64,000 nucleotides of DNA from Minisyncoccota bacterium (GTDB lineage Bacteria; Patescibacteriota; Minisyncoccia; Phycocordibacterales; UBA1006): contig DASWYC010000002.1 of the NCBI GenBank assembly GCA_036405175.1, positions 321,700-385,699 on the forward strand, written 5' to 3'. The stretch's first letter is position 1; each line of letters starts with the position of its first letter. Below the pieces are notes generated by a model that made no database searches, had not been told where the DNA came from, and was given only the letters and a program-made list of their open reading frames with translations. The translations under genes were made by a program, and so were the position numbers. Below, piece by piece: positions 13,078-61,700 of this stretch.

Positions 13078-14541
13078 ATGAGAAATTCATCTATTATCCG
13101 CTTTGCGATCCTTGCAGGATTTGCAGCATATTGTTTAGTGGTTATCGCTGGCCTTAGCCTAAACGGTTACAGCGAAAATATTAACCTTGTTCAAAGAGTA
13201 TGGGTCAATGACTCATTTCAATGGAAAGGCTTGATAACTCCATTGCAAATCGAAGGAACCAAATTTGAAAGTACCTCACAAAAAATTGCTTTCACCGTAC
13301 CTTGTATGTATGGAGGAAAGAAGTTTGATGTGATTAAAAACACTCCTACCGGGAACAGAATGACAAAGGAAGTGGCCGATTCATTAAGAACTGCTCTTTC
13401 AAGACTCATCTATCCTAAAACGGATTATTTTTACGGAGCTGGAGAATTAAACATTCTTGCTCATAATGCTGATGAAGACCTACAAGCTCTTCTTGGCAAA
13501 GTGCAAGTAAACAAGTTTCATGTGGAGGGCTCAGCCTCTCCAGAAGCCGGTGATGAACTAAGCATTTATCCTAATAAGCTCGAAGATGCAAACCATTCTT
13601 TAGCAGTTAATAGGGGAAAACTCGGTTTTGACATACTTTCAAACATATTCATCAACAATGGTGTAAATCTAAAGAAAGTAAAAGGAACGCACAATGGGCA
13701 CGAAGCTCAGTTGACTTCTCAACAAGCAGACTTGATTGATTTTAAATCAATCATCGATGCTAATCGCGAGAATACAGAGCACGCTACAATGTCACCTCTT
13801 CGTAACTGGAAGGCAGACATTAGTTTAACGATACCAACCAACAAGACTATGTCAGTAACAGTTCCATATCTATGGCTACTATTACTACTATTGCCTTGGC
13901 GTCGTTGGATTGATAGAGCACGCGAGAGTATTCCTTCCTTGAACTTCAAAAAAAGAAGTACTCAGGAGCAACCTCAACACGCGTACTCTGTAGCGCTTCC
14001 CTTCATCCCATGGATTAAGGCTGAATACTTGAAAAGAAAGTTCAGCTTCTCGTGGGAAAAACTTTGGGAAAAGGTTAGTGACTGGTTCTCTGCCCAAAGA
14101 GATGCTGTCAGATTATTCTTCCACGAACTCTCAGTTCGCGTCCGATTCTGGTTTGGCAAACAAGCCGCCAGATGGAGAAGAATAAAGTTATGGTGGTCAG
14201 AGACCTATGCAACCATTAGACCAAGGGTTACTCCTTGTACCGTCTTCTGGCTGTCTCTTCCTCCATTAACTCTTACCATGGCCTCAGGGTACTGGCTGAA
14301 TTCTTGGTTCTTAGTCATAACCTCGCTAATTACATTAGCAGGAGTCGGTATCTATGCTTTCCTTAATTGCCCAAAGGCACAAGGAGTCAAATATACCGAG
14401 TTCGAGGAGGTTGAAGCTGTCGAGGAGAAACCTCGTATGGAACCTATTCAACAATCATGCACTGTAACCGTGCCATGTTGGGTAGCGTACACTGGAGTAC
14501 TAATTATTGTTTCAATGGCGCTTTACATTCTGAGCCATTAA
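13078..14541 (+). CDS. hypothetical membrane protein (N-terminal signal/TM, extracytoplasmic domain, second TM, W/R-rich C-terminal region)
   Basis: 487-aa intact ORF; no recognisable catalytic motif; C-terminal half compositionally odd (W/R/F-rich). Confidence 0.5.
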   Translation: MRNSSIIRFAILAGFAAYCLVVIAGLSLNGYSENINLVQRVWVNDSFQWKGLITPLQIEGTKFESTSQKIAFTVPCMYGGKKFDVIKNTPTGNRMTKEVADSLRTALSRLIYPKTDYFYGAGELNILAHNADEDLQALLGKVQVNKFHVEGSASPEAGDELSIYPNKLEDANHSLAVNRGKLGFDILSNIFINNGVNLKKVKGTHNGHEAQLTSQQADLIDFKSIIDANRENTEHATMSPLRNWKADISLTIPTNKTMSVTVPYLWLLLLLLPWRRWIDRARESIPSLNFKKRSTQEQPQHAYSVALPFIPWIKAEYLKRKFSFSWEKLWEKVSDWFSAQRDAVRLFFHELSVRVRFWFGKQAARWRRIKLWWSETYATIRPRVTPCTVFWLSLPPLTLTMASGYWLNSWFLVITSLITLAGVGIYAFLNCPKAQGVKYTEFEEVEAVEEKPRMEPIQQSCTVTVPCWVAYTGVLIIVSMALYILSH

Positions 14542-14674: not shown

Positions 14675-16396
14675 CTATTTTTTATATAACAACCGTGCAA
14701 CTTTAATTTCATCATAGGAATACTTGCCTCCTCCAGCATCATATGCTGATTTGAGTGATCCCAAGGCACCCTGCCTATTAAACAGCTTATGAATTGCTGC
14801 TATATTTTTAAGCAGCTTTTTATCAAATGATTGTTCTATTGAACGCTTGAGTGGATGCTCGGCAGGATTTTCAAGAATCTTTTCAATATGACTGAGGATT
14901 GTTCCAAAGACCATTCCCCGCTTTTTAATAATCTCTTCAACAGAAAATCCTTCGTTTAATAAATCATACGTAATAGTCACCGTTGATACCTTGGTGGTAC
15001 CAAAACTATCTTCGCCCATCACGGTTCGTGCCTTTACACTTCCGCCACACGCAAGAATAAAGTTAACATGCATTTGATTAAGTTCTTCATTGGTCATTTT
15101 TCCAAAGAGATCCTCGGCGATATCTGATGCATCCCTAAAGACTCCATCTTGCATTAAAATCTGCGGATGCACCTCAAGTGCGCGTTCGTTGAAACCTAAT
15201 AGATAAATTCCTTTTAATGTCCGCACGCGTGAAAGCGCCACATATCCTTGACCATACTCAAATACTCGCGACAAGTCCATAATTGCTCCGTCCAAGCTCA
15301 TTCCTTGGCTTTTATGAATGGTAATCGCCCATGCTAAGCGAAGTGGGATCTGCGCTAATCGTGCTTTTACTTTACCATCTTCTTCAACGGTCCATTCCAT
15401 CTCCTCGACTTCAATCAACTCACCGTTATGTGTTTTTACCACCGGCGTAGTATTTTTAAATTCAATTATCTCACCCAAGGTGCCATTCATATACTTTTCT
15501 GTAGGGTTATTTTTTGTGAACATAACTTTTGCACCCACTTTAAGTTCTAATACTTCTGGAGACAAACATCCTTTTTTAAGATTTTCAATTAACGCTTTAT
15601 TTCCTGTAGTGGTCATTTCATATTTTTTAGTGAATCCAGGAAGCTTGGTGAGCTCTCCTCCATTCAACGTATCCACATCATAATTATGTGAATAGAGTTT
15701 AGTTACCGGAGGCAAGCGTGTTCTATCTTTGTGGATGCGTTCTGTTAAAAACTCATGCGCTTCAAACAAGCGTTCACCGTTACGAAGTGTAGTAAGAATC
15801 TGAAGCAAATCATCATCTGATTGACGATGTTGCTCACTTAAGTAGCACACTACCGGAGCAGCTTGTTCCCATGCTTTACTATTAAATGCAAAAAAAGTTG
15901 GAATCTCACTTTCATCAAATATGTCATTAGGATCCATCTGCATGCGGCGCTGAATTGGTGGTAGCTGAAAAAAGTCTCCCACAAAAATTATTTGAAGCCC
16001 ACCAAATGATTCATCTTTTCCACGCACTGCTCTGCACACGCTATCAATCGTATCAAGCATAGTATTGCTGAGCATAGAGATCTCATCAATAATCAATACA
16101 CTTGTTTTTTGAATACGCTTCACCACATATTCTTTTTGTGCAAGCATATCAAGTTCATATTCTGAAAGACGATCACGAATACCAACTCCACTCCATGAAT
16201 GAATCGTCATACCTCCAATATGAGTTGCTGCGATTCCAGTACTTGCGGTGATTGCATGGCTAATACCGTGCTCTTTAAGATAGGTCACGTATTGATTGAT
16301 CGTATAACTTTTTCCGGAGCCAGGCTCTCCGGTTAAAAAAACATTGGCACCAGTTTTAAGAATAGTAAGTGCTTCTGCCTGAGTCATACTGCTCAT
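14675..16396 (-). CDS. PIF1-family (RecD-like SF1B) 5'-3' DNA helicase with C-terminal HTH-like domain
   Basis: Walker A TGEPGSGKSY, Walker B LIIDEISML, Pif1 signature-like region, SF1B motifs (WAITIHKSQGMS, GYVALSRV). Confidence 0.8.
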   Translation of the reverse strand: MSSMTQAEALTILKTGANVFLTGEPGSGKSYTINQYVTYLKEHGISHAITASTGIAATHIGGMTIHSWSGVGIRDRLSEYELDMLAQKEYVVKRIQKTSVLIIDEISMLSNTMLDTIDSVCRAVRGKDESFGGLQIIFVGDFFQLPPIQRRMQMDPNDIFDESEIPTFFAFNSKAWEQAAPVVCYLSEQHRQSDDDLLQILTTLRNGERLFEAHEFLTERIHKDRTRLPPVTKLYSHNYDVDTLNGGELTKLPGFTKKYEMTTTGNKALIENLKKGCLSPEVLELKVGAKVMFTKNNPTEKYMNGTLGEIIEFKNTTPVVKTHNGELIEVEEMEWTVEEDGKVKARLAQIPLRLAWAITIHKSQGMSLDGAIMDLSRVFEYGQGYVALSRVRTLKGIYLLGFNERALEVHPQILMQDGVFRDASDIAEDLFGKMTNEELNQMHVNFILACGGSVKARTVMGEDSFGTTKVSTVTITYDLLNEGFSVEEIIKKRGMVFGTILSHIEKILENPAEHPLKRSIEQSFDKKLLKNIAAIHKLFNRQGALGSLKSAYDAGGGKYSYDEIKVARLLYKK

Positions 16397-22604: not shown

Positions 22605-23819
22605 TCAATGAAGAGTATTATCAATCACAATGCGTATATCCTCAGCATTATCCGGCACATTGGTAAGCCAAAACGGCTGCAATTGAACACGAACACTTTC
22701 TATTGGAAAGTTTTTAGCACTCAAAAGACTGCGAATACGAGCAATTGGTTGGCCATTAATAGCTGCAACAATTGCCTGTTCATCAGGCTTTCGCACAAAT
22801 ACGGTTTCACTTTGCTGAACAATATATGGCTGACTACCATCAAATGTCAGAATAAATTCCGGCAGCGATTTTTCTAATTGACGAACCATTACGTTACGCA
22901 CCGTCTCAATTGGCAATGTTGATTGGTTGTATACATATGAATACCAATCGTTCTTTTTCATAAGATAAATTTGATATGTTCCACGGAGTGAAATCTCGGG
23001 AGTTTTTAATAGTGTATTGATATTTGGCTCATCATATGCGAGTGAGCTTTTATTATCGATCTTAAACGCACCCGTAAGTGATAACGAGTACGCTTTTTCT
23101 TGGAGAACAAATTGAAGTTCTTTTTTAAGCTCCTCAACAATCTTATCTTCTGCAGCATCATTCATGAGTGGCTTATCTCCCACAAATCCTCCAGCAATTC
23201 CATTTTCTTGTACGATAGCATATTGAAGCGATATGCGAGGATCATTACGCTCATACCATGCGTTCACCTGAAGGGTTGTATCTTTTTTTAGATTATATTC
23301 TTGCCCCGGTTCGAGTGCCTCAATCGTTGCTAATGTTTTTGAAGGTGCAGCAGGTGTTCCTGATGGAAGTACGATCTTTTCTCCCACCAATGCGTAGAGC
23401 TTCTTCGTGGTTGGATTAATGAACTTTGTCCCCTCGGTAAAAAGTTGCGTGGTTGGATTGGTATTGGTGATAGAAATCACTCCCCTACTTTTTGTTGAAA
23501 CGTATTCTGTTGGAAGATTTTCAATGGCACGTTTTGCCGTGTATTCAAAATTTACGGGAACAATTGGGATGGTAGTAAGCGCCGGTTGATTCTCCATGTT
23601 AATAGAAGCCACTTCATATGCCGGTGCCTGATTATTGCTGTCAAACGGAACTTTTTCTGGGGTGATAATCAGGGTGATTTTTTGATAGTGATTTCCTAAA
23701 TAATAACAACCGGACAAGATTGCAAGTGTTCCAAGAATGATGGCCCATGTGCGTGTTCGAGAGCGAACAACTTTTGCTTCCTGATCACGAGTCTTTTTGA
23801 GAGGCGTATTCGTGCGCAT
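22605..23819 (-). CDS. hypothetical bitopic membrane protein (about 400 aa, N-terminal TM, large extracytoplasmic domain)
   Basis: intact ORF; no recognisable motif; start probably at internal MRTNTPLKK. Confidence 0.5.
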   Translation of the reverse strand: MRTNTPLKKTRDQEAKVVRSRTRTWAIILGTLAILSGCYYLGNHYQKITLIITPEKVPFDSNNQAPAYEVASINMENQPALTTIPIVPVNFEYTAKRAIENLPTEYVSTKSRGVISITNTNPTTQLFTEGTKFINPTTKKLYALVGEKIVLPSGTPAAPSKTLATIEALEPGQEYNLKKDTTLQVNAWYERNDPRISLQYAIVQENGIAGGFVGDKPLMNDAAEDKIVEELKKELQFVLQEKAYSLSLTGAFKIDNKSSLAYDEPNINTLLKTPEISLRGTYQIYLMKKNDWYSYVYNQSTLPIETVRNVMVRQLEKSLPEFILTFDGSQPYIVQQSETVFVRKPDEQAIVAAINGQPIARIRSLLSAKNFPIESVRVQLQPFWLTNVPDNAEDIRIVIDNTLH

Positions 23820-23916
23820 AATCGTAGTACAGTATACAATAATCCCGACTGGGCGGACATACAAAAGAGCACCTTTTACCATAAAGGTGCTCCTGAAACG
23901 GGTAAATTGAATACCC

Positions 23917-30801: not shown

Positions 30802-32196
<1,395 letters not shown>

Positions 32197-41179: not shown

Positions 41180-42730
41180 ATGGAAACAGAAGAAAAAGTA
41201 CTCTTTGAGATTACCTGCGATGGCAAACTTATTGAAGATTCTTATTTTGAAGGCGCTGACGCGACACTTATGATGTCACTAGCGCTCAACGAAGAACTCA
41301 TGAATACTTGCCTGGAAAAGGACGTTATACCCAAATTTGCTTTGGTTTTGGCAATACCTATTGATAAAGTGGATACAGATGATAAAAGCTACTATAGCTA
41401 CGAAGATTCTCGCTTCATATATAGGGTTGATAGAATGCCTTTTGTTTTAAATGTAACTAAGACAGGGGTTCACCGCGTTATCATTTGCCTATTCTCCGAT
41501 AAAACTACACTTGGAAGCTTAAGAGCTCTGTACTTGAAAGAGGGTGAATACAATAAATATCACTATTCAGTTACAAAACACATTCTTGAAACTCATCCTT
41601 TTGCCGTAGCCTATCGAGAATTCGACTTTGTCGTACCACAGGATGCCTTGGCTAAAAAACCTCAGGAAAACCCTATTGCAAAGTTCTTCTTTAAATGGGT
41701 TAACGAATGGATGAAATTACCCTACGATGAATGTCAATATCGTCGTCGAGCACTGTGGGTTACTCCGCTTAAATTTACATTAGTGGAGGTGCCGCTTTTT
41801 ACCCTACGGATAATATTTACGCTGTTTCTATTTAGCATGAATGCTCTCTATAAAACCATATCGCTGATTTTTGGATTTCAGCACGATCGTCTTCTTAAAG
41901 GTATTCAGGTCTTGCATCCTTTATTTATCCTACGACGCTCAGGGTTTAGTGAGATATTTGAACTTTCAGAAACATTCGGCATATTCCGCAATAATGAGTC
42001 CTACGGCCACCGCATATTTAAGTTTGGAGACAAGACGGTTATGTTTTGGTTTTCACCTATCGGATTAGCAATAAGCCTTGCGCTGTTCAAGCTCGCAGTT
42101 GAGGCTTGGAATCCTTCAGATATATCCTCAATGCTATTTAGATTCGGAATACTGGGCAATATAATCTTCTGCATACTTCTCCATCAAATAGCACAGACGA
42201 TCTTTAGGCGGAGAAGTTCTGATTTTAGAAAAGCAATGTCAGAAAACTTTTTAGTGGGCTGCATACTCATAATAGTAGTAAGCTTACTTATAATTGGCGG
42301 CATAGCTTCGAAGAACTTTGTGACAACACTTCCAACCCCAACAAGAAATAATCTTTTTTCGGGATTAATGACATTTGTAGGTTGCGTTGTTATTGCAGGG
42401 CTCATATATAGATATAGAGGCTTTTTGGGAATCCAACTTGGAACTATTGCTAAAAAAGCATCTAGCTTATTTAAAAAATCTCCAAAAGAAATGTCGATTA
42501 ACGAGGCACCCATATTGAATAAAAAGAATAGTGGGAAGTTTCAGAAAAGTGAGAGCGTATCATATAATTTACTTTCTCAAAAAGAAAGTCGCAGATTAGT
42601 ACTACAATCTCTTGCAGGAGCTCCCGCAATTACCAATAAAAATACATCGGGTATTAGAAAGCTACTCTCTGATTTTAAGGTCTTCTTTGTACAAACAAAG
42701 CGCACTGTATGTAAACCATACGAGCGTTAA
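41180..42730 (+). CDS. hypothetical polytopic membrane protein (about 200-aa soluble N-domain + about 7 TM)
   Basis: 516-aa intact ORF, AT-rich, no recognisable motif; inserted between rpoB and gyrA. Confidence 0.5.
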   Translation: METEEKVLFEITCDGKLIEDSYFEGADATLMMSLALNEELMNTCLEKDVIPKFALVLAIPIDKVDTDDKSYYSYEDSRFIYRVDRMPFVLNVTKTGVHRVIICLFSDKTTLGSLRALYLKEGEYNKYHYSVTKHILETHPFAVAYREFDFVVPQDALAKKPQENPIAKFFFKWVNEWMKLPYDECQYRRRALWVTPLKFTLVEVPLFTLRIIFTLFLFSMNALYKTISLIFGFQHDRLLKGIQVLHPLFILRRSGFSEIFELSETFGIFRNNESYGHRIFKFGDKTVMFWFSPIGLAISLALFKLAVEAWNPSDISSMLFRFGILGNIIFCILLHQIAQTIFRRRSSDFRKAMSENFLVGCILIIVVSLLIIGGIASKNFVTTLPTPTRNNLFSGLMTFVGCVVIAGLIYRYRGFLGIQLGTIAKKASSLFKKSPKEMSINEAPILNKKNSGKFQKSESVSYNLLSQKESRRLVLQSLAGAPAITNKNTSGIRKLLSDFKVFFVQTKRTVCKPYER

Positions 42731-48815: not shown

Positions 48816-50864
48816 ATGGAAAAGCACCCTCTCCACTTGAAAGCCCCTGAATTCCAAGCCTCTCCTGAAGTAACTAAGGCAGTGGAATCAAAAGAACGCG
48901 CAGCACGAGTATTAAATGAAAAACTTACGGAAGCTGAACACGAAGGACCTTTATTAAAAGAAAAAGTTGCAGCTGATCCCACCAGACGTATTGAGGCATA
49001 TATGGATCGTCTTGAAAATATTTTTCTTAACCCCGATGAACGAGTGCGCAAACGCAATCTCAAGTTACTAAAGAGCGCAATCTACGATGCACTCATAATC
49101 AAAAGAGAGAATTTCTCAGAAAGCTATTTTGAATTTGAAAAAAAGCTTCTATGTGAGCGTGGAGAATACATAGAAGAACTTTCTGAAGACAAAAAGGAAG
49201 AGCTCATGAATACGGCAATTCTCAATCAGGAAGAGTCTTTGGACGAATGGATGAACTTCCTCACATCAGAAGAGAACACCTACCCTACATGGTTTAAGTA
49301 TTATACATGGACTCAAATTATTAAACTTTCCCAGCTCGATAAAGAGCGCGGTCAATATAAAAATAGAACAGAATCCACAGTGGCACCCTTTCCAGATATT
49401 TACAACGAACCTCTTGCAGAAATTGCTGACTTATACGAAAAATATCCGGAAATACTTAAAGAAGTCCAGTCAAAGGATGAACAACTTCGCTCAGAAAAAA
49501 ATACCTTAAAAAAATCACTCAGCAGTGCAAGCAGCAAAGAAGAGAAAGCGCTAATTAAGGAAGCAATTTCTGAAATAACCCAAAAGATAGAAGAAGTTTC
49601 TGAACCTACGCGAGTATTTGATACAAAATTTTCAACCTTATATGCACAAAAGGCACTGAACTCACTAGTGAATTCAATAGAAAATGCCCAAGAAACTGCG
49701 GGTACTTGGGTGAAATATAATCAGGGTGATATGGAAGCCCTTGAAGAGCTTTTTAATTCAGTTAAAGGAAAAGGTACCGGATGGTGCACCACAGGAAGAG
49801 CAACAGCACGGCAACAACTTGAGAATGGTGATTTTTATGTTTTCTACAGCAATGACTCGTCTAACCAGCCTACACAACCTCGTCTTGCCATCCTGATGTT
49901 AGGTGATCAAATTAAGGAGGTTCGAGGTATTTTACCTAATCAAGCTGTTGAAACACCAATGCAAGAAATCCTAGACGACAAGCTTAAAGAATTTGGTCCG
50001 AAAGCCGAGCAATATAGCAAGAAAAGTCACGACATGCGATTACTCAAAAGCTTATCTGAAAAGCAAGATGCGGGCAAGGATTTTACAAAAGATGAACTAG
50101 TGTTTTTATATGAACTTCATAGACCTATTGAAAGCTTTGCGGGAGCAAGAGATCTTAGAATTGAGGAACTCCAGAAGCGTCGAAATATCGATGATGACAT
50201 CAAAAAACTTTTTGAATGTGAACCAGAACAAATCGCACGATCTTCAAAGGATATTACGGATACTACAAAAGTTTATATTGGAGCTTTAGATACTGATATT
50301 TTTACAAAATTCCCAAAAAATCTTGAACATATCTATTCATCATTTCCTGATGGAAGAATTCACATAACAACCATTAATCCTGAGCAAAGAACTGTTGGAG
50401 AGCTTACTTCCAAAGTGGAAGAAAATAACATAAAGATTTCTCCCTTGGCTTCAAGTATGTTTATGAATAAAAAAGAATTTATACCTGGTAAATATATGGA
50501 AAGCGTATCTTTGGTGCAAATTACCGCGAGCGATTTAGGGTTTACTAAAGGTGCAACTTTTAAGAAAATAATAGAGAAAGCCCAGAAACTTGGACTGGAA
50601 CTTTGTTCTCACGACATAGCACTTCAGCTTGCACTAAATGGTGAATCAAAGACGGTAAAAAGTGAAATCTCTATTGGTATGAATCCAATTTCAGATTCCA
50701 CAGGACATAAGTCTATCTTTGATCTTGCCGTCGATGACCTTGGTATATCTGTAAGTAATTCTTGGACAGATAAAAATACGGCTATTGGGCCTAATCAGAC
50801 TTTCCTGTTTTGCAAAAGAGAGTCTTCCGCAAAAAAGCCACGACGCTTTTGGTTTTTCTCTTAA
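48816..50864 (+). CDS. large hypothetical soluble protein (682 aa), charged/coiled-coil N-half
   Basis: intact ORF, no TM, no recognisable catalytic motif. Confidence 0.5.
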   Translation: MEKHPLHLKAPEFQASPEVTKAVESKERAARVLNEKLTEAEHEGPLLKEKVAADPTRRIEAYMDRLENIFLNPDERVRKRNLKLLKSAIYDALIIKRENFSESYFEFEKKLLCERGEYIEELSEDKKEELMNTAILNQEESLDEWMNFLTSEENTYPTWFKYYTWTQIIKLSQLDKERGQYKNRTESTVAPFPDIYNEPLAEIADLYEKYPEILKEVQSKDEQLRSEKNTLKKSLSSASSKEEKALIKEAISEITQKIEEVSEPTRVFDTKFSTLYAQKALNSLVNSIENAQETAGTWVKYNQGDMEALEELFNSVKGKGTGWCTTGRATARQQLENGDFYVFYSNDSSNQPTQPRLAILMLGDQIKEVRGILPNQAVETPMQEILDDKLKEFGPKAEQYSKKSHDMRLLKSLSEKQDAGKDFTKDELVFLYELHRPIESFAGARDLRIEELQKRRNIDDDIKKLFECEPEQIARSSKDITDTTKVYIGALDTDIFTKFPKNLEHIYSSFPDGRIHITTINPEQRTVGELTSKVEENNIKISPLASSMFMNKKEFIPGKYMESVSLVQITASDLGFTKGATFKKIIEKAQKLGLELCSHDIALQLALNGESKTVKSEISIGMNPISDSTGHKSIFDLAVDDLGISVSNSWTDKNTAIGPNQTFLFCKRESSAKKPRRFWFFS

Positions 50865-51796: not shown

Positions 51797-53026
51797 TTAT
51801 TGTGCTACTTCTGTAGTTGTTGACTGTTCGGTGATACTAATCATTACACCTTTGACTCCTGTTCCAACGCGGTCTTCGTCAAAGATAGTACGATTGAGTC
51901 CAATGTATACATCTTTGCGTTCTTTGAGTGGAGTTTCAAATACAAAAAGATTTTTATCTTTTACCATCACTGGTTTATCATTCTTAGTGATGAGTTCAAA
52001 TGTTCCTTGAGAAATTTTCATTTCTGCATCTTGGATTGAGTTTGAAATATCACGTGCAAAGAGGGTCTTTGCTCCAGTTATGATTTTGTTATCATTATCT
52101 CCCTTAAATACGCCAAGGATTCCATCGATAATTTGAAATTCTGCGTTGTATGGGTCTTGAGCAGATCCTCCTCCCCATCCATCATTAAATTTACTATTCC
52201 CAACGTTCAACATCCACTTTGAAGCTTTTCCTTCAATAATTGGCTTAATAGAGATTACCGAATTTGCGGTCAGATTTTTTGCAAAGATGCGTACAACTGC
52301 TTTCTTATTTTGAACTTTTCCAACGTATTCAAGGAATGCTCCGTCAGTATCACATTCAATAATTGCATCAACGGCAGATACAAAACAGGTACGAACAACT
52401 GGCTGAGTAGCTTCTGGTTCTACACTGTCTCCGCTAACCACTTGCTGAGCTGCAATTTGAGTATCGGCAGTCATCATACGAGCTTCTGGAGCTCCAACTG
52501 AGGGCGTAGTTGCAAGATTTGCAGCTACCGGCGCAACGGTAAGATTTGCAGTAGGGGTTGTGGTTACATTTTGAACAACTGGCGCAGTAGTTGTAGCGGT
52601 CTTGAGTGATGCATCTGCAGACTTTTTCTTTTCTCCATTATCAAAGACAAGTTCAGCTGATGAAATTTCATCAAGAGCAACAAGTGTTGCTTGATCTACA
52701 ATACCGTTTGTTGGAAGGTTGTGGGTCTTCTTGAATGTATTAATAGTGGTGGTGGTTTTAGGTCCAAAGATACCAGTATTAAGCCCGGTATAGAGTTTCA
52801 TATCGGTCAGGATATTTTGAAGATTGTAGACATCCTTTCCATACATTCCTTGTTTAAGGATACGATTAAAGGTGTATATTTCTACTTTCTTTTCTTCAGT
52901 CTTAGTGGCTGAAGTTGAGGTTTTTTCCTGTGCAAACGACACGCTTGGGGCGATCAAAGCGATCCCCATCAACAGCATAGGAATAAGGGTTTTTTGTGAA
53001 TTCATATTACAGCGATATTGTACCAT
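51797..53026 (-). CDS. secreted protein with peptidoglycan-binding (PG_binding_1-like) domain
   Basis: signal peptide; LKQGMYGKDVYNLQNILTDMKLY...TGIFGPKTTTTINTFKKTHNLPTNGIVDQATLVAL; Thr/Ala/Val-rich linker; about 200-aa C-terminal domain of unknown function. Confidence 0.6.
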   Translation of the reverse strand: MVQYRCNMNSQKTLIPMLLMGIALIAPSVSFAQEKTSTSATKTEEKKVEIYTFNRILKQGMYGKDVYNLQNILTDMKLYTGLNTGIFGPKTTTTINTFKKTHNLPTNGIVDQATLVALDEISSAELVFDNGEKKKSADASLKTATTTAPVVQNVTTTPTANLTVAPVAANLATTPSVGAPEARMMTADTQIAAQQVVSGDSVEPEATQPVVRTCFVSAVDAIIECDTDGAFLEYVGKVQNKKAVVRIFAKNLTANSVISIKPIIEGKASKWMLNVGNSKFNDGWGGGSAQDPYNAEFQIIDGILGVFKGDNDNKIITGAKTLFARDISNSIQDAEMKISQGTFELITKNDKPVMVKDKNLFVFETPLKERKDVYIGLNRTIFDEDRVGTGVKGVMISITEQSTTTEVAQ

Positions 53027-53121: not shown

Positions 53122-54018
53122 CTATTTCTTTTTACTAAATCTTTCTGAAAGCATTACCAAGGCTGGTGATGCAAAGAAGATTGATGAGTAGGTTCCGGCA
53201 ATCATTCCAATCAAGAGTACCTCTGCAAGACTCATGGTTGATTCTGGTCCAACTACCACCAATGAGATCAATACAGCAATAACCGCCAATGAGGTTGCCA
53301 GTGAACGGACCACAGTCTGTGATAATGATCGCCCAACGATTCCCTGGAAGTTAGTATCAGCTTCATTTTGATTAGCACGAGAAAGATTTTCACGAATACG
53401 GTCGAATACCACAATTGAGTCGTTTACTGAAAGTCCAACAACTGAAAGGAGCCCAACCACAAAGAGGGTATCAACTTCTTTACCAAAGAAGGCAAAGATA
53501 GCTGCTGGAATCACTACGTCGTGAACAATCGCAAGCACAATAGCAAGTCCATAGTACCATGATGAAACGGTTCCCTGAACTTTTCTAAATGAGTATGCAA
53601 TGTAGCAAACAATAAATGCTGAAACTAGGATGAGCGCAATAATTGACTTGGTCTTAAGTTCTTTACTTACCGATGGACTAATCGTATCAAATCGCTCAAC
53701 AGTTGGTGCTTGTTCGCCAATCGTAAATTCATCCAAGAATGCGGTGCGATTCTCTTCTGAAATTTCTGTACTACGCACTAATACCTTATTGGTTCCAAGT
53801 GCTTGTACTTTTGCTCCTTCAAATCCATTAGCGGCAAGTTGCTCGCCAAGCGTAATCGTATCAATCTTAGTTCCTTCTGGATATGAAAGTTCTGCTACGG
53901 TTCCTCCCTGAAAATCAATACCAAGTTTGAATCCTTTAATAAAGATAATAGCAAGTGAAGCAACCACAAGAAGGATTGAGAATCCAACAAACCATTTTTT
54001 ATGCTTAATTACGAACAT
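53122..54018 (-). CDS. secF: protein translocase subunit SecF
   Basis: 6-TM SecF topology and conserved periplasmic domain (GIDFQGGT). Confidence 0.9.
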   Translation of the reverse strand: MFVIKHKKWFVGFSILLVVASLAIIFIKGFKLGIDFQGGTVAELSYPEGTKIDTITLGEQLAANGFEGAKVQALGTNKVLVRSTEISEENRTAFLDEFTIGEQAPTVERFDTISPSVSKELKTKSIIALILVSAFIVCYIAYSFRKVQGTVSSWYYGLAIVLAIVHDVVIPAAIFAFFGKEVDTLFVVGLLSVVGLSVNDSIVVFDRIRENLSRANQNEADTNFQGIVGRSLSQTVVRSLATSLAVIAVLISLVVVGPESTMSLAEVLLIGMIAGTYSSIFFASPALVMLSERFSKKK

Positions 54019-54022
54019 ACAA

Positions 54023-55438
54023 TTATGAGTTTACGCGAGTAAATCCCGACCAATACATCCATCTGGTAAATTTTGAGTTTGAATCTGAGAATGCAATCAA
54101 ATACACATTAGTGATCACCAAGGTTACCAATACGGCAACCAAAGTTCCCAATCCAAAGGTCACAGCAAATCCTTTAATCAAGGTTGTTCCAAACCAGAAC
54201 AAGATGATTGATGAGGCAAGTGAGGTTACGTTTGCATCACGGATTGAAGGCCACGCACGCTGTACTCCATCGTGAACTGCCTGTTTTACCGTCTTTCCAT
54301 CACGAAGCTCTTCCTTAATACGTTCAAAGATCAGAATATTCCCATCAACGGCAATTCCAAGAGAGATAATGAATCCAACAATACCTGCAGCAGTGAGCGT
54401 TACTGGAACAAGCTTGAAGAGTGCCAACATGATAATGGCATACGAGATGAGTGAAAGCACACCGAGGAACCCACTAAAGCGATACCAAATGAGCATACCG
54501 AGCGCGATGATGATAAGCCCAAGTGCACCTGCACGGATTCCAGCATCAATTGCCCCACTTCCAAGTGATGGTCCGATGGTTGATGTTGATACCAATGTTA
54601 CCGGAACCGGAAGCGCTCCCGAGTTAAGACGTCCCACTAATTCTTTTGCTTCTTCAAAGGTAAAGTTTCCACTAATGATTGCTTCACCGTTGGTAATTTC
54701 TGTTTGTACGGTTGGTGCAGAAATAATATTACCGTCCAAATAGATTGCAATAGATTTTCCAATATTTTCTTTGGTCATCTTTGCAAAGAGTTCAGATCCT
54801 TCTTTATTAAATGCAATTGAAACGGTTGGAGATCCAGGAATCATTTGCTGTCCAACTTGTGAACCTTGCGTAAATTGAACGACTGCAGATTTAAGATACT
54901 TTCCCGTAAGTTCAGTAGTGAGGTAGGGATCTTTAAGATCTTCCATGTTTACTGAATTAAAACTTTGAGTTTCTTGAATCTTTCTAATAGCAGCATCGTA
55001 TTTTGCTTGATCAAAATTTGGATTTTCTGTTTTAAATTCAAGAAGCGGTGTTTGACCAATGGTTTTGTTTGCTTCTGCAACATCAGTAACTCCTGGAAGC
55101 TCTACCACCAAACGATATTCTTTTCCTGATCCAGGAAGGTTTACCGTTTCTGTCTGAATGCTTGGTTCAGAAACACCAAAGGCATTAATGCGACGCTCAA
55201 TAACATCACGAAGTGCTGCCATTGAATCACCGACATTTTTGCTGTCGATCTTTGAAACGTCAGCCTTGTATACCAAGTATGACCCTCCCGCAAGATCAAG
55301 CCCGAGGCGGAACTTTTTACCGTCTGGACGTTGCTGCCCCTGATAAATAAAGGTCGCAATCCCAAGTGTGGCTACAATGAAAAAAACAGCCCACAATTTT
55401 GGCATAATCGACTTCCAATTAAATGTAAATTTCTTCAT
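54023..55438 (-). CDS. secD: protein translocase subunit SecD
   Basis: LGLDLAGGSYLVY, large periplasmic domain then 6 TM; secDF order. Confidence 0.9.
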   Translation of the reverse strand: MKKFTFNWKSIMPKLWAVFFIVATLGIATFIYQGQQRPDGKKFRLGLDLAGGSYLVYKADVSKIDSKNVGDSMAALRDVIERRINAFGVSEPSIQTETVNLPGSGKEYRLVVELPGVTDVAEANKTIGQTPLLEFKTENPNFDQAKYDAAIRKIQETQSFNSVNMEDLKDPYLTTELTGKYLKSAVVQFTQGSQVGQQMIPGSPTVSIAFNKEGSELFAKMTKENIGKSIAIYLDGNIISAPTVQTEITNGEAIISGNFTFEEAKELVGRLNSGALPVPVTLVSTSTIGPSLGSGAIDAGIRAGALGLIIIALGMLIWYRFSGFLGVLSLISYAIIMLALFKLVPVTLTAAGIVGFIISLGIAVDGNILIFERIKEELRDGKTVKQAVHDGVQRAWPSIRDANVTSLASSIILFWFGTTLIKGFAVTFGLGTLVAVLVTLVITNVYLIAFSDSNSKFTRWMYWSGFTRVNS

Positions 55439-55546
55439 AAGAATAGTAGAATTTTATGCCCATTTAGGCTGTTTTGCAAGGTTTTAATGGGTTGAAAGTA
55501 TTGCGTGATATTTTGGTGAAGATATTCGGAGAGGGTTTAATAATAT

Positions 55547-55575
55547 AAAGAGCGGCGCCTACGGCGCCGCTCTTT
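55547..55575. terminator. GC-rich palindromic terminator, repeat copy A (aaagagcggcgcc-tac-ggcgccgctcttt)
   Basis: identical to 61670-61700. Confidence 0.6.
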
Positions 55576-55584
55576 ATATCCACT

Positions 55585-56085
55585 CTATTTCCCCACCTTT
55601 TCCTTTTTAGCCTGACACGTAGCGCACAAGCATCCTCCGTGCGGCTTAATGATTTCATCAAAGTACTCCTTTCCATAATCATAGGTAAGTTCGTCACCCT
55701 TTTTGATCTTTTTCCATGAGTAGATAAATACGCGACCCTTTTCAAGATTTGCCTCACAATTCGGTTTGCATTGATGATTAATGTATCGCGCAAGATTCTT
55801 GCGATCCTTTCCATCAATCGTTACCTTACTATTGATTTCAAAGAGATACTTTCCACCTCGAATATCTGCCTCTGCAGGAGTGATTCTTTCTCCGGTATAT
55901 TCAATGATGCGCTGACCAGGTTGAATATCCTGATCCGCAAAAAGTCCCATACCTGCATATGATTTTCCAATACGAACTTTTACATGCGGCTCGGCAAGCC
56001 ATTGCGATGGTTTTTGTGTTTCAGAATTTTTAGCAGACTTCTGAGTATCTGATTTTTTTGTGATCGTTGCTGATTTCGTAGTCAT
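55585..56085 (-). CDS. SET-domain protein-lysine methyltransferase
   Basis: GxG region (RIGKSYAGMGLFA), YLFEIN, NHQCKPNCE (NHSCxPN), ELTYDYG, post-SET CLCATC; Lys/Ser/Thr-rich N-terminal 40 aa. Confidence 0.8.
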   Translation of the reverse strand: MTTKSATITKKSDTQKSAKNSETQKPSQWLAEPHVKVRIGKSYAGMGLFADQDIQPGQRIIEYTGERITPAEADIRGGKYLFEINSKVTIDGKDRKNLARYINHQCKPNCEANLEKGRVFIYSWKKIKKGDELTYDYGKEYFDEIIKPHGGCLCATCQAKKEKVGK

Positions 56086-56174
56086 TGTTGAATATTGTAA
56101 GTGCGGGAGAATTTTTTTGCAAATAAAAAAGCTACTCCGACGGAGAGTAGCCTATGAACCGAGAACATCCTTGC

Positions 56175-56762
56175 TCAAACAACCTTGTAATCTTTTACAA
56201 CATGTGTGGCAATACCCAACTCAATGATTTGCTTATGAGTTAACAATCTATCTTTGTAAAAGAGATTCCCATCAAATAAGTAATTAAGGGCGGCTTCAGT
56301 TAATCCAATCCTTGAATAATATTTCTTTTGTATATCGTCATACGATTGCAGTTCTTCCACCATTTCTAAAAGCTCTTGCTTGTTTCTTGAGCCGGAAACA
56401 GTACGCATCGTTGCATGAAATACCATATTAGCTCCAGGATATAACACTCTCTTATCTCCCAGTAGAGCAATAATAATTGCTGCGCTTGAGCAGTTACCTG
56501 TTAGGTGAGTAATGATTTCAAACTTCTTTCTTTTACGTAGATTATCAAAGTAGTCATAGATACCAGTTGATACTCCAATTGTTCCGCCAAGAGATTCAAG
56601 ATAAATATTCAAGGCACTCGAACTCTGGAGTTGATTCAACTGAGGAGAGAGCTGATTCTGAATATTTCTTGGAGTATCATTTTGATCTAAGCTACCAGAT
56701 ATGAACACATCGATCATATGATGGTCTGCATATTCCTCAATATTAAATTCTTGTATTTCCAT
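56175..56762 (-). CDS. ClpP-family (S14) serine peptidase-like protein, standalone
   Basis: LESLGGTIG (cf. INSPGG), GNCSSAAIIIALLG (Ser), MVFHAT (His), KDRLLT (Asp) align to ClpP catalytic triad; no clpX nearby. Confidence 0.6.
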   Translation of the reverse strand: MEIQEFNIEEYADHHMIDVFISGSLDQNDTPRNIQNQLSPQLNQLQSSSALNIYLESLGGTIGVSTGIYDYFDNLRKRKKFEIITHLTGNCSSAAIIIALLGDKRVLYPGANMVFHATMRTVSGSRNKQELLEMVEELQSYDDIQKKYYSRIGLTEAALNYLFDGNLFYKDRLLTHKQIIELGIATHVVKDYKVV

Positions 56763-56810
56763 TTTTTATAGAAAGATTTAATGTTTATGATGAGTTTCAA
56801 TTTAGTACAT

Positions 56811-57869
56811 TTACCGTATCTTGTCAATAATCCCTCCCCATACAATTCTTTCGCCTTGATATACCACTAGCATCTGCCCTTCAGTTGGGCGTTCTAAAGA
56901 TTGAATGGTCACGGTTTGCGTATCGGTATCAAAACTTTTTACCATATACCGTGTCCCATGATAACGCACTTGAGCTTCAAGTTTTTTAACGTACTTAATT
57001 CGGGTAATTCCGTGATTTACCGTATTGCGAAGCTGCACCTCATACTTTTTAGGTTTTTCATTCTGCACAAATTGTGTACTCACTTTCAAAATATTTTTTT
57101 CAATATCTCTATCAATCACATACCACGCATGAGACTTTTTGAATTCATCAAACACGGTAAATCCGTGACGTTCACCTAATGTATATAAACGTGCGTCATC
57201 ATGTTTTCCAATTACCTCGCCTTGCTCATTTACCACATACCCCGGAATAAAATCAATATAATGTGCAAGAAAGTCCTTCATATCAATCATTCCCAAGAAG
57301 CACACACCTTGTGAATCTTTTTTTGCACGTGTTGGCAAGCTATACTTTTGAGCTAATTTGCGCGTTTCTGTTTTATGAAGTCCACCGAGCGGGAAAATCA
57401 CCTCTTTTAAAATCTTTGATTCTACGCCTGCCAAAAAATATGACTGATCTTTAAGAGGATCAAGGGCACACAAAAGTTTTCCGTTATCTGTTTGCGCGTA
57501 GTGTCCCGTTGCAATGAGTCCACCGCCATGCTCATCTACCCACTGTTTAAAAATACCAAACTTAATTTCTTTATTACACAAAATATCCGGATTTGGTGTG
57601 ATACCGTTTTTGTATCCATCGATCATATATTGCACCACCTCATTTTTGTATGCCTCACTCGTATCAAGATCAAGAAATGGAATAGCAAGATGAGCTGCAA
57701 CACGCATTGCATCTCTGCGATCCTCGCGCCACGTACATGGGATAAAATCCGGCTGCCATGGGCGAAGATAGACGCCAATAACCTCAAAACCCTTGTCTTT
57801 GAGCAAGGCTGCGGTTACGGAACTATCAACACCTCCTGAGAGGCCAACATAGACGCGACGGTTTTTCAT
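56811..57869 (-). CDS. mnmA: tRNA-specific 2-thiouridylase MnmA
   Basis: PP-loop VGLSGGVDSSV, catalytic Cys residues. Confidence 0.9.
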   Translation of the reverse strand: MKNRRVYVGLSGGVDSSVTAALLKDKGFEVIGVYLRPWQPDFIPCTWREDRRDAMRVAAHLAIPFLDLDTSEAYKNEVVQYMIDGYKNGITPNPDILCNKEIKFGIFKQWVDEHGGGLIATGHYAQTDNGKLLCALDPLKDQSYFLAGVESKILKEVIFPLGGLHKTETRKLAQKYSLPTRAKKDSQGVCFLGMIDMKDFLAHYIDFIPGYVVNEQGEVIGKHDDARLYTLGERHGFTVFDEFKKSHAWYVIDRDIEKNILKVSTQFVQNEKPKKYEVQLRNTVNHGITRIKYVKKLEAQVRYHGTRYMVKSFDTDTQTVTIQSLERPTEGQMLVVYQGERIVWGGIIDKIR

Positions 57870-57962: not shown

Positions 57963-58568
57963 TTATTTTTCTTTATAAAGAATACTGAGCACCTCTTTCT
58001 CGTCCATATCAAATGATAAACCGTATCGCTCAAGCGACTTTTGTATTACGTCTATAGTACTAAGCCCTAAGCCAGCTACCGCACGGCGCGTATCAGTGTT
58101 TTTGTCGACTTTAAATAACACATGACCGTTGTCACTGAGAGATAGCGAGGCAATATCTGAGAGCCTCTTTACTTTAATCCTATCTAAAGCAGTTTTTGCA
58201 CGTGAATCTAAGCCTTCAACATTTGACAAAAGAGGATTTGCTTTAAGTTCAATCTTTTTTTGATTGATAATACCCATTGCATCTTCCCGACTCATTGCAA
58301 AAGCTAAATCAAACTCCTTTAATAATTCATAGATTTCTTCATAGGTCTTTTTGATAACAAGTTTTTTATTCTGTTTACCTTCTTCCAAGTTAGTGTCGAT
58401 GAGCAAAACCTTGTCTGCACCCACCTCAACAAGCAACATTGCCACATCTGAAAGACCTGGTAGGCCTAAATGTCTTACAAGAGGCTTATATGCCCTAATA
58501 CTCATCGAAACGTCATGGAGCGATATATCTCCTTCGGTGATCGGCTTTGGGATTACTATATTTTTCAT
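57963..58568 (-). CDS. hypothetical protein with tandem helix-hairpin-helix-like C-terminal segments
   Basis: 201 aa; segments LDSRAKTALDRIKVKRLSDI and GLGLSTIDVIQKSLERYGL resemble HhH / RNAP alpha-CTD-like motifs. Confidence 0.4.
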   Translation of the reverse strand: MKNIVIPKPITEGDISLHDVSMSIRAYKPLVRHLGLPGLSDVAMLLVEVGADKVLLIDTNLEEGKQNKKLVIKKTYEEIYELLKEFDLAFAMSREDAMGIINQKKIELKANPLLSNVEGLDSRAKTALDRIKVKRLSDIASLSLSDNGHVLFKVDKNTDTRRAVAGLGLSTIDVIQKSLERYGLSFDMDEKEVLSILYKEK

Positions 58569-59277: not shown

Positions 59278-60800
<1,523 letters not shown>

Positions 60801-61027
60801 ACTGGAAAACTCTTCTTCTCATCTTTATCAATCACGTTGTGAAAGATTTTATTGTGAGAGAAAGTTCATAGAACAGAACAACTAAACATTCTTGTTTGTT
60901 GTCTTAATAATTGCACATTTAAGTAGATATTTAATTTGTAAGATGGGCAGTTAAAAAAGCTAACTGCAGTGCATCCTATAATGAGGCATCGCGATTAAAA
61001 AGTCAAGCGATTGTGGAAAAACCGCAA

Positions 61028-61612
61028 TTATGAATTTCGGGCGTCAAATAAAAGCTTTTTGAGGGCTTCGTGGAGTGGTTTATCTGCCACTGAATCCTGG
61101 GGTAAATTGAGTGCTTTTTTGAGTGTATTTACCTGGGCAACAAAGGCATCTCCTGCTTCTGCAACGATAGGCAATTTTTGATTGAGTGTAAGGTTAATAA
61201 TTTCACGATATTCACTTACACGCTTACCCATTGATTCTTTTTTAATCGTCACTGACTCACCAATAAGATCATCAAGGCGACGCATAAATCTATCAAAGTC
61301 TGCTTGTTTAATAGCCTGAATACGCGCAATGTCTTGTTGTGTTAAAAATGATTTTGTAATCGCTGGAGTCGTTGTTTGTTCTTCTGGTTGTGACTGAGAT
61401 TCTTCTGGGGTTTGTTGAGTGGTATTTGATGCTTGCACAGGATTTGAAGATGCTGGAGTTGGCGCTCCTTTAACATCTTTAAGGAGTGGACTCTGACTAT
61501 CAAATGCCATAGTACCGTGATTCTGAAGGAGTGATGTATAGGCAACATACACACCGTAAATAGCCGCAGCTACGAGGATAATCCAAATGAGTGAATCTGC
61601 AATGCGATTCAT
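61028..61612 (-). CDS. hypothetical membrane-anchored protein with Gln/Thr/Pro-rich linker
   Basis: 194 aa, N-terminal TM. Confidence 0.45.
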   Translation of the reverse strand: MNRIADSLIWIILVAAAIYGVYVAYTSLLQNHGTMAFDSQSPLLKDVKGAPTPASSNPVQASNTTQQTPEESQSQPEEQTTTPAITKSFLTQQDIARIQAIKQADFDRFMRRLDDLIGESVTIKKESMGKRVSEYREIINLTLNQKLPIVAEAGDAFVAQVNTLKKALNLPQDSVADKPLHEALKKLLFDARNS

Positions 61613-61669: not shown

Positions 61670-61700
61670 AAAAGAGCGGCGCCTACGGCGCCGCTCTTTT
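61670..61700. terminator. GC-rich palindromic terminator, repeat copy B, downstream of groEL
   Basis: aaaagagcggcgcc-tac-ggcgccgctctttt; identical core to 55547-55575. Confidence 0.6.

Follow-up and report, generated by a model that had tools for sequence, protein, structure and literature searches.

The 64-kb window analysed here, that is, the whole stretch of 64,000 nucleotides, encodes a SET-domain protein-lysine methyltransferase and, next to it, a standalone ClpP-fold serine peptidase. The two genes are probably independent and lie side by side in this lineage alone, the first encoding an active cytoplasmic methyltransferase and the second a dispensable peptidase. Both ORFs were confirmed on the minus strand where the initial annotation had placed them: the SET CDS at 55585–56085 (166 aa, a SET core and a short post-SET cysteine cluster with C106, C152, C154 and C157) and the ClpP-like CDS at 56175–56762 (195 aa, a non-canonical ClpP with Ser93, His116 and Asp171). 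They are separated by 89 nt, and the locus is neighboured by mnmA and secDF. The ClpP-like gene, which had been described as downstream of the SET gene, lies upstream of it in the direction of transcription.

The 166-aa product had been regarded as a genuine SET-domain lysine methyltransferase, and this is borne out by the HMM match, the conserved residues and the fold prediction. It scored 86.6 bits against PF00856 (E = 1.9e-24; gathering score 22.4) over profile positions 1–105 of 105, and the SAM-binding and catalytic residues are kept on alignment. In a 34-sequence family alignment, the motifs G45-M-G47, Y80-L-F82, N103-H-Q-C106-K-P-N109-C-E and E132-L-T-Y135-D-Y137-G are invariant or nearly so, and the invariant residues include G45, G47, Y63, G65, N103, H104, C106, N109, E132, Y137, C152 and C154. 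The SAM-binding motifs (G45-M-G47, Y63-T-G65 and N103-H104-Q-C106-K-P-N109) are invariant in the 34 homologs and align to those of MLL1, MLL4 and Set1. Mutation of Y967, N1016, H1017 or Y1054 in Set1 abolishes activity (PMC3585878); their counterparts in the SET protein are Y63, N103, H104 and Y137, and all four are invariant. In the catalytic-tyrosine motif, Y137 corresponds to Set1 Y1054, and Y135 to Y1052, the Phe/Tyr switch residue. Lys139 occupies the position of Set1 F1056 (SET7/9 Y337) in the wall of the lysine channel, and the channel may therefore differ from those of characterised SET enzymes. The AF2 model had an overall pLDDT of 85.8, with means of 82–97 for blocks over residues 31–166, and the top Foldseek matches of this predicted structure were the SET domains of MLL4, MLL1, COMPASS and G9a (probability 1.00). 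Sequence identity of the core to MLL and G9a SET domains is 33–36%. The post-SET cysteines, initially read as CxCxxxxC, are in fact C152-x-C154-x-x-C157 (CxCxxC). The family keeps four cysteines (C106, C152, C154 and C157) with the spacing CxCx2C, in contrast to the CxCx4C of the canonical zinc cluster.

The SET protein adds to a large bacterial family whose members NCBI and JGI already annotate routinely: compact prokaryotic enzymes (~130 aa) with a SET core and a short post-SET cysteine cluster. The view that bacterial SET proteins are uncommon fails for this family, which comprises 1079 protein clusters from at least 583 GTDB species. It spans Patescibacteria as well as free-living Proteobacteria and Bacteroidota, and members at 47–55% identity are found in cultured free-living Microvirga and in Caulobacterales, Xanthobacteraceae and Chitinophagales. 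A literature search for SET domains in Patescibacteria found no study, and the one paper found for SET domains and the Candidate Phyla Radiation deals, by its title and abstract, with bacterial death and TRADD-N domains. The substrate is known for no compact member. Since hundreds of Patescibacteria species and the culturable Microvirga carry such proteins, identifying the substrate of a culturable member would annotate more than 1000 proteins together. Clustering of the SET neighbours over 80 species loci, with antisense stop-to-stop ORFs overlapping SET trimmed because they had confounded the clusters, gave no conserved neighbour as a clue to function, as no neighbour family occurred in more than 14 of the 80 loci. 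The commonest neighbour was a 208-aa protein without a Pfam match, and an F420-ligase-like protein neighboured SET in six loci. Membership in a defence system was considered for the SET protein, the ClpP-like protein, a 201-aa protein and the M16 peptidase, and was rejected for lack of a PADLOC match at E ≤ 0.01.

The ClpP-like protein was described in the initial annotation as a divergent ClpP-fold neighbour with an intact triad, and PF00574, the fold and the residues agree with this. It scored 42.5 bits against PF00574 (gathering score 20.2), and Ser93, His116 and Asp171 align with Ser111, His136 and Asp185 of E. coli ClpP. The AF2 model (pLDDT 91.9) had ClpP1, ClpP2 and ClpP as its top Foldseek matches (TM 0.72–0.75), and a full ClpP fold was predicted, including the long handle helix (residues 128–150). 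A PDB sequence search yielded no match at E ≤ 0.01, and the fold search alone gave matches. Homologs are few: a word-index search returned only the protein itself, with no copy of 50–99% identity in 5.8 billion clusters, and an exhaustive search of 1.84 billion representatives gave five at E ≤ 1e-10, only two of them orthologs besides itself. The protein would be a fast-evolving and dispensable ClpP-fold serine peptidase in a tiny clade, with phage ClpP-related head-maturation proteases as its next relatives.

This affinity raises the possibility that the ClpP-like protein derives from a phage ClpP-related head-maturation protease, as a remnant or a domesticated copy without the scaffold domain, a minority explanation that we nevertheless take seriously. 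In NCBIfam and PHROG it matches head-maturation proteases best (NF045542, 53.4 bits; phrog_1684, 1.7e-13), the next representatives after the two orthologs are 280–390 aa long and match families of this kind, the matching proteins of phage genomes are annotated as capsid maturation proteases, and the gene is patchily present and evolves fast. However, the NF045542 score is below the family cut-off of 120, and the adjacent genes are mnmA, SET and secDF, with none for a capsid, portal or terminase protein. The GC content of the gene (0.35–0.37) is also the same as that of the neighbouring genes, and a horizontal-transfer signal was rejected on the same ground. Three lineages retain the triad and the full fold at 30–36% identity, a point in favour of a cellular function of the protein.

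We consider it improbable that the protein is the working ClpP of the organism, acting together with a ClpX or ClpC from another part of the genome. The full predicted fold, the intact triad and the PF00574 score above the gathering score would fit such a role, and the window covers 64 kb of ~668 kb, which leaves room for a partner ATPase in the remainder. As noted initially, no ClpX or ClpA partner was detected in the window: no Clp ATPase was found among the ORFs of at least 325 aa that were scanned, a set that left aside an 821-aa ORF identified as GyrA only through the closest relative. Against this role, the canonical ClpP model TIGR00493 gave 17.7 bits (cut-off 308.6), and even the best ClpP model, NF009205, gave 33.7 (cut-off 228), so that all ClpP equivalog models are far under their cut-offs. 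The PF00574 match begins at profile position 19, which leaves the N-terminal axial-loop region unmatched. The closest relative has no such gene, and the ClpP-like sequence has changed much more quickly than the housekeeping genes beside it; the lack of 50–99% identical copies and of a PDB match at the sequence level also counts against a working ClpP. The NCBI name "ATP-dependent Clp protease proteolytic subunit" is probably an over-annotation.

Returning to the SET protein, codons 1–35 (55981–56085, minus strand) encode a disordered, basic, Lys/Ser/Thr-rich N-terminal tail. Residues 1–30 had a pLDDT of 47–64 in the AF2 model; the tail has a pI of 10 and contains no hydrophobic segment, and the pI of the whole protein is 9.3. 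Only the closest relatives have the tail: P0001, P0002 and P0003 carry it, and most homologs of 125–145 aa lack it. N- or C-terminal extensions were present in 29 of 117 aligned homologs, and most of them are net basic. We picture the protein as an active, cytoplasmic, SAM-dependent protein-lysine methyltransferase whose basic tail may anchor it on nucleic acid or on the protein that it modifies. The substrate would most likely be a single endogenous protein or a few, basic and associated with nucleic acid, a class suggested by basic tails and by analogy with two prokaryotic enzymes: cpnSET of Chlamydia pneumoniae methylates Hc1, and Go1-SET of Methanosarcina mazei methylates MC1-alpha (PMC3980110).

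Action on the organism's own lysine-rich proteins is more plausible than the effector role suggested in the initial annotation, which gained no support. A secreted episymbiont effector would methylate proteins of the host cell, as the nucleomodulins NUE, RomA/LegAS4 and BaSET do. The organism belongs to Paceibacterota (CPR) and has a small genome, with an identical ClpP-like protein on a 668-kb contig, and secreted effectors are among the characterised bacterial SET proteins (PMC3980110). The similarity to the SET region of LegAS4 is weak: the model for the Dot/Icm effector AnkI/LegAS4 (NF043024) gave 36.8 bits with a cut-off of 550, and the match is confined to the SET region. We judge an effector very unlikely, as no signal peptide or hydrophobic N-terminal segment was found, the housekeeping synteny with secDF is stable, secretion-system genes are absent nearby, and close relatives occur in free-living bacteria. 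CPR hosts are, moreover, usually histone-free prokaryotes.

A more specific version of the endogenous reading is that the enzyme methylates histone-H1-like Lys/Ala/Pro-rich tails of the organism's own proteins, mainly the N-terminal tail (~95 residues) of RpoD, the primary sigma factor, whose gene is 24 kb from SET in the same window. In the same reading, the basic tail of the enzyme itself may be a second target. We judge this reading very unlikely. If it is true, lysine methylation would act as a switch on transcription machinery or nucleoid in a minimal-genome bacterium.

The relation between the two genes was assessed by their arrangement in related genomes. In the closest relative (L001), SET, MnmA and SecD are 89%, 92% and 94% identical to those of the window and the order is mnmA-SET-secDF; the ClpP-like gene is absent, with SET and its promoter-like sequence intact. 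In L008/L009, the next relative, the order is ClpP-like, M16 peptidase, SET, a 92-aa ORF and secDF, and in L089 the ClpP-like gene is followed by an M16 gene, so that it is the M16 peptidase, and not SET, that directly follows the ClpP-like gene in the lineages of both known orthologs. In the window itself, tblastn detected no M16 peptidase elsewhere. Since ClpP-like, M16 and SET are co-oriented and closely spaced in L008 and L009, an ancestral three-gene cluster is possible. The ClpP-like protein and its M16 partner in related genomes mark a tiny uncharacterised peptidase clade. A profile search over 80 species loci found a ClpP-like ortholog near SET in one (L009) and none in the other 79. 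Evolutionary rates also differ: between L008 and the present lineage, the ClpP-like proteins are 32% identical, while SET is 64% and SecD 82% identical. The adjacency of SET and ClpP-like in the window is a lineage-specific accident.

Each gene is surrounded by promoter-like and terminator-like sequences. All of these were called by their match to a consensus, and the 11 promoter-like sites in the region equal the shuffle expectation of 10.3. The ClpP-like gene is preceded by a promoter-like site TTGACA-17-TAAATT (56799–56827, minus strand; 10 of 12 consensus positions), which overlaps the 3′ end of mnmA. An intrinsic-terminator-like hairpin (56129–56153, minus strand) found by the terminator scan marks the putative end of its transcription unit, with an RNA fold of −12.7 kcal/mol (z = −2.8), followed by a U-run, UUUUUUAUUU. 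The SET gene then has a promoter-like site TTGCAA-17-TACAAT (56094–56122, minus strand) from the consensus scan, with the −10 hexamer ending 8 nt before the ATG; this sequence is conserved in the closest relative, where it lies directly after the mnmA stop codon. Downstream of SET is a terminator-like perfect palindrome (55543–55579, minus strand; 17-nt arms and a 3-nt loop; pair I2 of the repeat finder), with an RNA fold of −33.4 kcal/mol (z = −7.3), whose stem is preserved in the closest relative with a compensating change. An identical 21-nt core recurs at 61675–61695, giving two copies where none is expected by chance; the repeated palindromic terminator flanking the genes, noted initially, was recovered. 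If these elements work, SET would be read as a single-gene transcript that starts at its own promoter and stops at a strong hairpin terminator, its mRNA would probably be leaderless or near-leaderless, and the two genes would form separate transcription units, each with its own promoter-like and terminator-like elements.

The initial annotation proposed to judge the pairing by whether the two genes are neighbours in related genomes, and in this respect a two-gene module is close to refuted. Such a module, in which methylation would mark proteins for proteolysis or the peptidase would mature the methyltransferase, is scarcely credible: the genes share a strand at a short distance here, and in L008/L009 a single gene separates the co-oriented ortholog from SET, but synteny and the intergenic promoter-like and terminator-like sequences led us to reject an operon or module.

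Canonical ClpP (MEROPS S14; TIGR00493) has the same predicted fold as the ClpP-like protein over ~179 residues, and the triad is retained. The ClpP-like protein differs in its low identity to canonical ClpP (16–21%), in the unmatched axial-loop region, in being dispensable in the closest relative, and in the lack of a Clp ATPase among the scanned ORFs (at least 325 aa) of the window. Phage head-maturation proteases (NF045542; phrog_1684, phrog_94 and phrog_2976) are its top-scoring families, from which it is set apart by a score under the cut-off, by the absence of the C-terminal scaffold domain and by the absence of a phage gene context.

For the SET protein, the best sequence and fold matches are MLL/Set1 (KMT2) and G9a/GLP, with which it has the GxG, YxG, NHxCxPN and ELTYDY motifs in common. 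[quoted passage not shown] Unlike these enzymes, it lacks the SET-N, SET-I and pre-SET elaborations and the partner-binding regions, has a post-SET CxCx2C instead of CxCx4C, and carries Lys139 in place of the aromatic residue at Set1 F1056; it also occurs in an organism without histones. The secreted effectors NUE, RomA/LegAS4, BtSET and BaSET have the catalytic SET domain in common with it, whereas ankyrin repeats, a nuclear localisation signal and a recognised secretion signal are absent from the present protein. cpnSET and Go1-SET, as prokaryotic SET proteins acting on their own basic DNA-binding proteins, represent the mode of action proposed here, a likeness of functional analogy that does not establish family membership. 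The closest comparison is with the compact "SET domain-containing protein-lysine N-methyltransferase" proteins of Paceibacterota, Nomurabacteria, Kaiserbacteria, Microvirga and others, which have 50–66% core identity, the same invariant motifs, the same CxCxxC cluster and the same single-domain organisation. What sets the SET protein of the window and its three closest relatives apart from these is an additional N-terminal tail of 25–50 residues, basic and disordered.

The 166-aa SET ORF (55585-56085) and the 195-aa ClpP-like ORF (56175-56762) share the minus strand. The window comes from a Patescibacteria (CPR) bacterium and consists of housekeeping DNA, also encoding 16S rRNA, GroEL, DnaK, RpoB, RpoC, RpoD, DnaG, Obg, YchF, several aminoacyl-tRNA synthetases, and an 821-aa ORF that was called GyrA through the annotation of the closest relative, locus L001. 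In transcription order, the minus-strand genes are a 201-aa ORF without family match (57963-58568), mnmA (56811-57869), the ClpP-like ORF, the SET ORF, secD (54023-55438), secF (53122-54018) and a peptidoglycan-binding protein gene (51797-53026). Therefore, the ClpP-like gene is upstream of the SET gene; the initial annotation was right about the common orientation and wrong in placing it downstream. The 16S rRNA gene is complete at 59279-60807 (minus strand). Neither a 23S nor a 5S gene nor a spacer tRNA was found with it across the whole 64 kb, which suggests that the rRNA genes are unlinked. Six sizeable ORFs in the window (194-682 aa) showed no significant Pfam match: 13078-14541, 41180-42730 and 48816-50864 on the plus strand, and 22605-23882, 61028-61612 and the 201-aa ORF adjoining mnmA on the minus strand. 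Conservation of the 201-aa ORF was limited to identical contigs. Amid the housekeeping genes, 14675-16396 (minus strand) encodes a PIF1-like helicase whose C-terminus carries an HTH_40 domain.

The SET domain is genuine, as had been proposed. The ORF scored 86.6 bits against PF00856 (gathering score 22.4) and covered the entire profile. In an alignment of 34 homologues, residues G45, G47, Y63, G65, Y80, F82, R100, N103, H104, C106, N109, E132, Y137, C152 and C154 were invariant. An AlphaFold2 model built from the family alignment had a mean pLDDT of 85.8 (82-97 by 10-residue block for residues 31-166, with residues 1-30 disordered), and Foldseek matched its fold to the SET domains of MLL4, MLL1, COMPASS and G9a/GLP at 33-36% identity. 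The best-supported reading is that the gene is predicted to encode an active, cytoplasmic lysine methyltransferase.

Bacterial SET proteins had been described as uncommon. A word-index search with this protein returned 1079 protein clusters, mostly of 125-145 aa and 50-66% identical across the core, and at least 583 confirmed SET loci came from scanning GTDB species at one genome each. Therefore, the description does not hold for the compact SET family. Among the matches listed, the majority of loci were from Patescibacteria (Paceibacteria, Nomurabacteria, Kaiserbacteria, Wolfebacteria, Vogelbacteria and Moranbacteria), and those outside included cultured Microvirga strains. Carriers labelled Caulobacterales, Xanthobacteraceae, Hyphomonadaceae, Chitinophagales, Spirochaetia and Pyrinomonadaceae were MAGs, the taxon labels of which may be mistaken, as those of isolate genomes cannot. 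SET genes are also present in free-living and environmental bacteria according to a 2014 review (PMC3980110). Many clusters already carry the name "SET domain-containing protein(-lysine N-methyltransferase)" at NCBI or JGI, and our search of the literature found no paper on SET enzymes in CPR bacteria. The compact family is thus common and already annotated, and the SET gene described here is one more member.

The SET protein begins with a disordered tail (residues 1-35, MTTKSATITKKSDTQKSAKNSETQKPSQ...) that is basic and Lys/Ser/Thr-rich and is common only to its closest relatives, P0001 (89% identical), P0002 and P0003, and the full-length pI is 9.3. Terminal extensions, N- or C-terminal and mostly net basic, were present in 29 of 117 aligned homologues, for example MARTKKKTVKKKTKKKLVAKK in homologue P0053. 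Such extensions would fit an enzyme working on or near nucleic acids. Two prokaryotic enzymes, cpnSET and Go1-SET, methylate Hc1 and MC1-alpha, respectively (PMC3980110); by analogy, the substrates here are most probably endogenous basic proteins. A plausible candidate is RpoD (30802-32196, minus strand), the N-terminus of which is a histone-H1-like tail of about 95 residues rich in Lys, Ala and Pro; no other ORF in the window reaches 9 Lys in 30 residues. The possibility that the enzyme is an effector has nothing specific in its favour, and it is weakened by the housekeeping synteny, by close homologues in free-living bacteria and by the lack of a Sec-type signal peptide in the first 45 residues, where the most hydrophobic 10-residue stretch had a Kyte-Doolittle mean of only 0.18.

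The ClpP-like protein belongs to the ClpP family as suggested (PF00574: 42.5 bits, threshold 20.2) and retains the catalytic Ser/His/Asp, its Ser93, His116 and Asp171 aligning with Ser111, His136 and Asp185 of E. coli ClpP. Its AlphaFold2 model (pLDDT 91.9) has a long handle-like helix at 128-150 and, across about 179 columns, superposed on structures of ClpP1, ClpP2 and ClpP (TM 0.72-0.75, 16-21% identity). The NCBI database has an identical protein from "Candidatus Paceibacterota bacterium", named "ATP-dependent Clp protease proteolytic subunit". This name is probably an over-annotation and unwarranted at present, as the score was far under the cut-off of every ClpP equivalog model (e.g. 17.7 against 308.6 for TIGR00493, clpP). 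The best NCBIfam match was NF045542, "head maturation protease, ClpP-related", also below its cut-off (53.4 vs 120). The protein is nearly an orphan: a word-index search matched itself alone, and when 1.84 billion representatives were searched exhaustively, five proteins passed E<=1e-10, two of which are standalone orthologues (204 and 198 aa, 30-36% identity). The next matches, including longer proteins of 279-390 aa, strongly matched phage head-maturation protease families, and comparison with phage genomes gave at most 25-27% identity, to capsid maturation proteases. The GC content of the gene was not distinct from that of the flanking genes. The protein is best read as a predicted dispensable, fast-evolving ClpP-fold serine peptidase, possibly derived from a phage head protease.

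The proposed pairing of the two genes was not conserved across related genomes. Locus L001 (MnmA 92%, SET 89%, SecD 94% and SecF 95% identical) has the order mnmA, 45-nt spacer, SET and secDF, with the ClpP-like gene absent. No ClpP-like copy at 50-99% identity was found in a collection of 5.8 billion clusters; therefore, this lineage appears to be without the gene. In the next relative, L008/L009 (SET 64%, SecD 82% identical), the gene order is ClpP-like (32% identical), M16 peptidase, SET, 92-aa ORF and secDF. The third ClpP-like orthologue, in locus L089, also adjoins an M16 peptidase, 73% identical to that of L008. The M16 (HxxEH) metallopeptidase is thus directly 3′ of both known orthologues on the same strand, and is the recurrent neighbour of the ClpP-like gene; no M16 gene was found in the window. 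These two genes form a small uncharacterised two-peptidase cluster (L008 206-2075; L009 161-~2030; L089 196-1541). Taking L008/L009 as the outgroup, the most parsimonious history would start from adjacent ClpP-like and M16 genes upstream of SET; the window lineage would then have lost M16 alone and the L001 lineage both genes, with SET and its promoter-like site remaining intact throughout. A profile search of the 8-kb flanks in 80 species-level loci found the ClpP-like orthologue near SET only in L009; three other loci had unrelated ClpP-fold ORFs, 2-5.5 kb from SET on the opposite strand. No companion family of SET occurred in more than 14 of the 80 loci. Among the 80 loci (L010-L088), the commonest neighbour was a 208-aa family without Pfam match (14 loci), within 500 bp of SET in six of these 14 and of inconsistent strand. 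The SET and ClpP-like genes are best regarded as two independent genes.

The promoter-like and terminator calls are consensus matches only, promoter-like sites being as numerous in the region as expected from shuffling; from these matches, the layout is that of two putative separate transcription units, all signals lying on the minus strand. The ClpP-like gene has TTGACA-17-TAAATT (56827-56799) and a hairpin with a U-run (56153-56129, -12.7 kcal/mol). The SET gene has TTGCAA-17-TACAAT (56122-56094), the -10 hexamer of which stops 8 nt short of the ATG; the element and this position are both kept in L001. The secD site (55438-55479) stops 12 nt short of its ATG, and no obvious Shine-Dalgarno sequence was seen in 56085-56122 or 55438-55479, so both mRNAs may be leaderless or very short-leadered; a leaderless or near-leaderless mRNA is suggested for SET. 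The SET gene is followed by a perfect palindrome with 17-nt arms (55543-55579, RNA fold -33.4 kcal/mol, z -7.3), the stem of which is preserved in L001 via a compensating insertion, with a different loop. The repeated palindromic terminator previously reported was recovered: its 21-nt core, AGCGGCGCCTACGGCGCCGCT, occurs in identical copies after SET (55551-55571) and groEL (61675-61695), folding at -33 and -26 kcal/mol, respectively.

Overall, the initial observation was confirmed with two corrections, to the gene order and to the post-SET spacing, and its interpretation was partly supported. In alignments to MLL1, MLL4 and yeast Set1, residues Y63, N103, H104 and Y137 lie opposite Set1 Y967, N1016, H1017 and Y1054, mutation of which abolishes activity (PMC3585878). 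There are hints of a low methylation state, by a rule that fails for some SET enzymes (PMC3585878). The post-SET cysteines C152, C154 and C157 form CxCxxC, in contrast to the textbook CxCxxxxC originally assigned to them, and Lys139 occupies the place of Set1 F1056 in the wall of the lysine channel.
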